Virus record (IMG/VR): IMGVR_UViG_2687453319_000001
Origin: a virus
Taxonomy: Duplodnaviria > Heunggongvirae > Uroviricota > Caudoviricetes
Length of the DNA stretch: 37,753 nt
Strand: one strand, 5' to 3'
Below the pieces are notes generated by a model. The model ran no database searches. It was not told where the DNA came from and saw only the letters and a program-made list of their open reading frames with translations. Made by a program: the position numbers and the translations under genes. Each line of letters begins with the position of its first letter. Within the stretch, counting starts at the first letter, position 1. This document shows positions 3,174-3,219 of the stretch, piece after piece.

Positions 3174-3193
3174 ACCAACAGGCAGTGCAGAGC

Positions 3194-3219
3194 CTTCCCC
3201 AAACCAAGGTAATTGAGGA
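3194..3219 (-). other. gix/hix-like crossover site 3 at the constant/variable junction of the tail fiber gene
   Basis: Reverse complement reads caattaccTTggtttggggaagg; G run is 4 here but 5 in sites 1 and 2, which breaks the fusion frame. Confidence 0.6.

Follow-up and report, generated by a model that had tools for sequence, protein, structure and literature searches.

The window, by which is meant the whole 37,753-nucleotide stretch of DNA analysed here, contains an E. coli Mu-like transposable prophage inserted in irp2, with bases 1-358 representing the host flank. The interrupted gene codes for the yersiniabactin synthetase HMWP2. Annotations in related records include a transposase, a MuB-like ExeA protein, Gam, gp16, Mor, and baseplate and tail genes of the Mu type. 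By comparison with the annotation of L003, the early genes (transposase, ExeA/MuB-like, Gam, gp16 and Mor) are on the plus strand at the right end, at about 26800-37753, and the lysis, head, tail and fibre genes are on the minus strand, running toward the invertase gene at the left end. The two sets of genes thus diverge, whereas those of Mu are co-linear. The window stops where the mor-like gene ends, still within the prophage. Near-identical copies of the prophage were found in yehY (L003) and beside parE (L001), which is expected of a transposable phage. The irp2/prophage junction was identical in 27 complete E. coli genomes, eight of which were fetched (L004-L011), and its presence in so many genomes suggests a lineage without an intact irp2. 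A search of the literature for Mu-like prophages inserted in irp2 returned nothing relevant.

The left end of the prophage carries a tail-fibre switching module. A serine DNA invertase of 190 amino acids with Resolvase and HTH_7 domains (PF00239, E 8e-51 and PF02796, E 1e-12, respectively) is encoded at 439-1011 on the minus strand, beyond the invertible segment. The protein has 77 % identity with Mu Gin over 181 amino acids, matches the Gin structures 4m6f and 3uj3 with E values of about 1e-93, and has its Ser9 aligned with a residue that is Ala in 3uj3. The DNA could also be aligned with the 5' part of Mu gin at 81 % mean column identity, a value in which coding conservation and conservation of a Fis-dependent recombinational enhancer, located in this part of the gene in the Din family, are inseparable. 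Searches against NCBIfam gave only sub-threshold matches for the invertase and none for the cassettes or the tail fibre assembly gene described below.

The constant part of the tail fibre gene (Sc) is located at 3208-4691 on the minus strand and contains Phage_fiber_2 repeats, as well as two further one-base deletions which are considered below. Between 3369 and 4508 there are six tandem units of 168 nt with alternating identities of 85 % and 98 %, so that they are effectively three units of 336 nt. The copy number of the 168-nt unit is equal to that in the reference prophages, and there is thus no sign of repeat collapse. Three variable cassettes, each coding for a tip with a Collar domain, are found next to the constant part. 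Cassette A (2700-3205, minus strand) is the one joined to the constant region in the window and has the short run at its 5' end, cassette B (2177-2692, minus strand) is silent in this arrangement, and cassette C (1080-1556, plus strand) is silent and in inverted orientation. A gene for a tail fibre assembly protein (tfa, Caudo_TAP domain) is located at 1563-2177 on the minus strand, between cassettes C and B and downstream of cassette B. It follows cassette B only, with no such gene after cassettes A and C, and in the Sc+C arrangement it is directed away from the fibre gene.

Three crossover sites delimit the cassettes. Site 1, which adjoins the invertase gene (1066-1091, plus strand), reads GAGAGATAAACG TT GGTTTGGGGGAA with its core at 1078-1079. 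The internal site 2 (2681-2706, minus strand) reads TTCCCCCAAACC AA CGTTTTTATGCG with its core at 2693-2694, and shares bases of its right half with the stop codon of cassette A. Site 3 (3194-3219, minus strand) forms the junction of Sc and the cassette, and reads (T)TCCCC[C]AAACC AA GGTAATTGAGGA on the plus strand, with the central dinucleotide at 3206-3207. Sites 2 and 3 are direct repeats, and site 1 is inverted relative to both. Sites of the Din family have a 12+2+12 layout, and TTCCCCCAAACC is found in three mix sites (PMC3241671, Table 3). Sites 1 and 2 match the Din-family consensus, and site 3 matches it after one base has been restored; as written, its outer TTC is off by one base. 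With the missing C restored, the variable half-site of site 3 is identical to the p15B mix half-site TTCCCCCAAACC, and its fixed half-site is identical to that of EC958 Phi2_5prime, TCCTCAATTACC. EC958 Phi2_3prime has the same sequence as site 1, which can also be aligned in register with Mu gixR. The serine invertase would recombine the three 26-bp sites at the central dinucleotide, and the constant part of the fibre would thereby be followed in frame by one of the three alternative C-terminal cassettes, A, B or C. This E. coli Mu-like prophage has an ordinary tail-fibre switching module of the Gin/Min type, the mechanism of which has already been described.

The short run in site 3 consists of the C residues at 3197-3200 on the plus strand, which are read as G4 on the fibre strand. 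The site motif GGTTTGGGG(G)AAGGCTCTGCA is present three times in the window, at 1081-1100 (plus strand), 2672-2691 (minus strand) and 3186-3205 (minus strand), compared with a chance expectation of 0.01 matches. When aligned in one orientation, the three sites are identical from TT onward except for one gap: sites 1 and 2 read TTGGTTTGGGGGAAGG (G5) and site 3 reads TTGGTTT-GGGGAAGG (G4). The alignment thus bears out the first-pass annotation, in which the G run of site 3 had been described as one base shorter than those of sites 1 and 2. The constant fibre frame, read on the minus strand as given, continues as ...SIKDVLNYLGLGKALHCLLVCLFHGPPPHRQQAG*, so that 22 residues and a stop follow ...NYLGLG; this is the early end, 23 codons on, that had also been noted. 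The adjacent frame carries GEGSALPVGVPVPWPTATPPAGW... / GEGSALPVGVPVPWPTATPPAGWLKCDG..., and with G5 the fusion would read ...DVLNYLGLGEGSALPVGVPVPW, in agreement with the in-frame fusion that had been predicted for a run of five. Further one-base frameshifts are present upstream in the fibre gene, at 4472 and 4587.

The run does lie at the crossover site, as had been proposed, but its assignment to the constant region did not hold, since it is on the variable side, 5 nt from the central TT and within the invertible segment. It therefore belongs to the half-site of cassette A and would move with that cassette. Consequently, the Sc+A fusion, with one of three fibre tips, would be the only one disabled if G4 were real.

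Four segment orders and one deletion derivative were observed among the eight fetched loci. The order of the window, C(+) tfa(-) B(-) with the fibre Sc+A, was also found in L004 and L005. L011 had B(+) tfa(+) C(-), again with Sc+A, L008-L010 had A(+) B(+) tfa(+) with Sc+C, and L006 had A(+) C(+) tfa(-) with Sc+B. L007 was the derivative without cassette A, which was apparently lost by recombination, either between the direct repeats of the crossover site or between the 220-bp repeats that flank them. All three fusions (Sc+A, Sc+B and Sc+C) were present among L004-L011, and the fused fibres of the sister genomes are annotated as intact and in frame, with lengths of 1995, 2004 or 1965 nt. Judging from these segment orders, inversion occurs in this lineage. 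The fixed half-sites were stationary in every state and the cassette-side sequence moved, including a C/T marker 21 nt beyond TT, which confines the exchange to the 23-nt identical stretch starting at TT. From the known mechanism of the family we infer that crossover takes place at the central dinucleotide, the comparative data themselves resolving its position only to these 23 nt.

Substitutions relative to L004 were clustered at 1158-1181 and 10318-10391 and were absent relative to L003. In cassette C, L004 has the A/B-like LKCDGRAF compared with LQCNGATF, and the clustered substitutions in this cassette suggest gene conversion between cassettes. A patch resembling that of cassette C is found in the tape measure gene.

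The missing base in site 3 is one of several in the window. When the region 359-37753 (37.4 kb) was compared with the prophage in NZ_CP124506, one substitution and 11 gaps were found, and each of the 11 gaps was a single base absent from the window, inside a G/C run. The comparison with NZ_CP124483, which has the same irp2 insertion, gave the same 11 gaps, one more at 67 in the irp2 flank, where G6 is shortened to G5, and additionally two short recombination-like patches of substitutions. In total there were 12 single-base deletions and, against the closest relative L003, one substitution. All 12 deletions were in G/C runs of 4-6 bases, with no insertions and no deletions in A/T runs. G/C runs of 4 or more make up 2.4 % of the sequence. 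At all 12 positions the window alone among the fetched loci had the short run.

The first of the under-called runs is in the irp2 host flank (67-71, G6 to G5). Three are in the fibre gene: the run in the half-site of cassette A (3197-3200, C5 to C4), which is C5/G5 in every related sequence, and two in the constant part (4472-4474, C4 to C3, and 4587-4591, G6 to G5). Further runs are in the GPW/gp25 baseplate gene (6644-6647, C5 to C4), twice in the tape measure gene (10991-10995 and 11120-11124, both C6 to C5), in a tail assembly protein gene (12966-12969, C5 to C4) and in a hypothetical gene of the tail region (13582-13585, C5 to C4). The remaining three are in a hypothetical gene of the head region (18852-18854, C4 to C3), in a head morphogenesis gene (20516-20518, C4 to C3) and in a 513-amino-acid hypothetical gene upstream of the DUF935 gene (22348-22351, G5 to G4). 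The fibre is thus broken three times (3197, 4472 and 4587) and the tape measure twice. When the three bases were added to the fibre gene, a stop-free reading frame of 664 amino acids was obtained, identical to WP_217823681.1 except for T144I.

The loss of bases rose with the length of the run in the reference, with 3 of 166 G/C runs of 4 bases (1.8 %), 5 of 41 runs of 5 (12 %) and 4 of 6 runs of 6 (67 %) being shortened, although the trend was not perfectly monotonic, since the single C7 run of the reference was not shortened. None of the 298 A/T runs of 4 or more bases was shortened (Fisher p = 2e-5). With insertions as likely as deletions, the occurrence of deletions only would have p = 2e-4.

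The run of four was also sought in other collections. The 81-mer 3160-3240 matched 716 E. coli RefSeq complete-genome records, none of them at 99 % identity, and the best 15 of these 716 matches each covered 82 nt of the record and were thus longer than the query by one base. Neither the junction nor the flank was matched at 100 % in the E. coli RefSeq complete genomes, and the phage collection likewise gave no such match. A 32-mer with G4 had no exact matches in IMG/VR or in metagenome contigs, whereas the corresponding G5 32-mer had 12 and 19 matches, respectively. At position 3197, 41 sequences had a run of 5 and one, the window, a run of 4. The spacer between GGTTT and AAGG was 5 nt in 86 of 86 sites and the run was of 5 in 41 of 41 related Sc junctions; 31 of the 41 loci had been retrieved using the G5 pattern at the Sc site, and the remaining 55 sites were unselected for run length. 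The spacer was GGGGG in 80 sites, AGGAG in five and AGGGG in one, so that it varied by substitution and never in length.

The G4 at 3197-3200 is almost certainly a base-calling or consensus error in which a G/C homopolymer was under-called by one base, the true sequence being G5. It is judged an artefact because the window has 12 deletions in G/C runs compared with one substitution, because these deletions are private to the window and because G4 was absent from the collections searched. The true G5 would give an intact tail fibre of 664 amino acids, consisting of the constant part and cassette A. Homopolymer sequencing error had been ranked as the likeliest of three explanations in the first-pass annotation, and every comparative test supported that ranking.

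Errors of this type have been described for long-read sequencing. PacBio-only assemblies of two test genomes had systematic errors, for the most part deletions of one G or C in homopolymers of 4-6 nt, and these errors truncated essential genes despite high coverage (PMC8574707, the ARAMIS study). Homopolymer deletions that fragment genes in long-read assemblies have also been reported in the Kastor study (PMC12007338). The 12 deletions of the window resemble the long-read homopolymer errors of these studies (PMC8574707, PMC12007338) in being single-base G/C deletions in runs of 4-6 bases. Some nanopore data sets have more errors in A/T runs, whereas the window has none. The match of signatures suggests that the deletions may stem from a PacBio-type platform.

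A real one-base deletion in the cassette A half-site of site 3, fixed in the strain as the prophage decays, would also account for the G4 in the given sequence, and would both frameshift Sc+A and displace the outer TTC block of the half-site by a single base. The insertion disrupts irp2, and selection could be relaxed on the prophage as well as on the remnant of that gene, so that arguments from selection alone do not suffice against frameshifts there; G/C runs are also preferred targets of real slippage. Decay should, however, yield mainly substitutions, whereas the window has 12 indels and one substitution. In E. coli mutation-accumulation studies indels make up 10-30 % of events, and with the share assumed to be in this range the probability of at least 12 indels among 13 events would be 1e-11 to 5e-6. 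Furthermore, all 12 events are deletions in G/C runs, none is common to any of the 41 related loci, and G4 is missing from every collection searched. A fixed deletion is thus very improbable, and the inactivating mutation that the first-pass annotation had offered as one option found no support.

There is very little chance that G4 is real and constitutes a spacing mutation in the variable-side half-site of a mix-type site, which frameshifts one of three fibre tips and displaces the conserved outer TTC. If it were, the displaced TTC could impair the binding of the invertase and lock or bias the switch, and the site would be a minor curiosity, namely a naturally occurring spacing mutant of an invertase half-site which knocks out one allele of the fibre. 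A mismatch-repair mutator background was ruled out by the ratio of indels to substitutions and by the presence of deletions only, without insertions.

Slipped-strand phase variation, in which a reversible change in the length of the G run would switch the fibre or one cassette at the recombination site, had been a further suggestion. Contingency loci and the window have in common a homopolymer in which a change of one base toggles the frame, but the tract in the window is short and invariant in length: it is only 5 nt in all relatives, whereas the tracts of contingency loci are usually about 7 nt or more, and no length polymorphism was found in the 86 related sites or the 41 Sc junctions. The two upstream frameshifts in the fibre gene would, moreover, keep the fibre off regardless of the run. 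The irp2 remnant and the genes for the tape measure, head and baseplate have lost single bases in the same way; a switch at these places is implausible, and this pattern across the window points to a technical rather than a locus-specific cause. A phase-variable run is therefore extremely doubtful.

It is hardly credible that a mixture of inversion states in the culture confused polishing locally at the junction, for, although the switch is active in this lineage and mixed orientations in EC958 led to spurious contigs and clustered discrepancies in a different invertible fibre region, that of prophage Phi1 (PMC4134206), the remainder of the invertible segment (359-3196) does not differ from NZ_CP124506 and the same type of error is present at 11 sites outside the segment.

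With under-calling of G/C runs as the preferred reading, the window has approximately one homopolymer deletion per 3 kb, and every apparent pseudogene or frameshift in it should therefore be regarded as a probable artefact first. Included here are the three breaks in the fibre and the two in the tape measure, as well as those in gp25, the head genes and the irp2 flank.

As for the switching module, it illustrates a known mechanism clearly, with three cassettes. A close counterpart is the invertible tail-fibre segment of the related prophage Phi2 of E. coli EC958, in which inversion was observed directly in reads (Forde et al. 2014, PMC4134206). Its fixed half-sites are identical to those of the window (TCCTCAATTACC TT ... 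and GAGAGATAAACG TT GGTTTGGGGGAA; PMC4134206), and both systems have a constant part with Phage_fiber_2, tips with Collar domains and an invertase gene adjoining the segment. EC958 Phi2 has two sites and a segment of 2067 bp, whereas the window has three sites and three cassettes in approximately 2.1 kb, and the variable half-site on the Sc side is GGTTTAGGAGAA in EC958 and GGTTTGGGGGAA in the window.

In the Min system of p15B, more than two crossover sites shuffle several cassettes for fibre tips, as in the window, and the half-site TTCCCCCAAACC is identical. Site 3 of the window resembles p15B mixQ''R' (AA GGTAATCAAGAA) and site 2 resembles mixN''O' (AA CGTTTTTATGTG). However, p15B has six sites and is a P1-related plasmid prophage, whereas the window has three sites in a Mu-like transposable prophage. 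The order of genes is alike in Mu and the window, with the constant part of the fibre followed by the invertible segment and the invertase, and the annotated boundary of the Mu G segment is at the central dinucleotide, site 1 of the window being in register with gixR. Mu differs in that its two gix sites have a GA core and its cassettes form two Sv-U pairs, compared with the AA/TT core, three cassettes and one tfa of the window.
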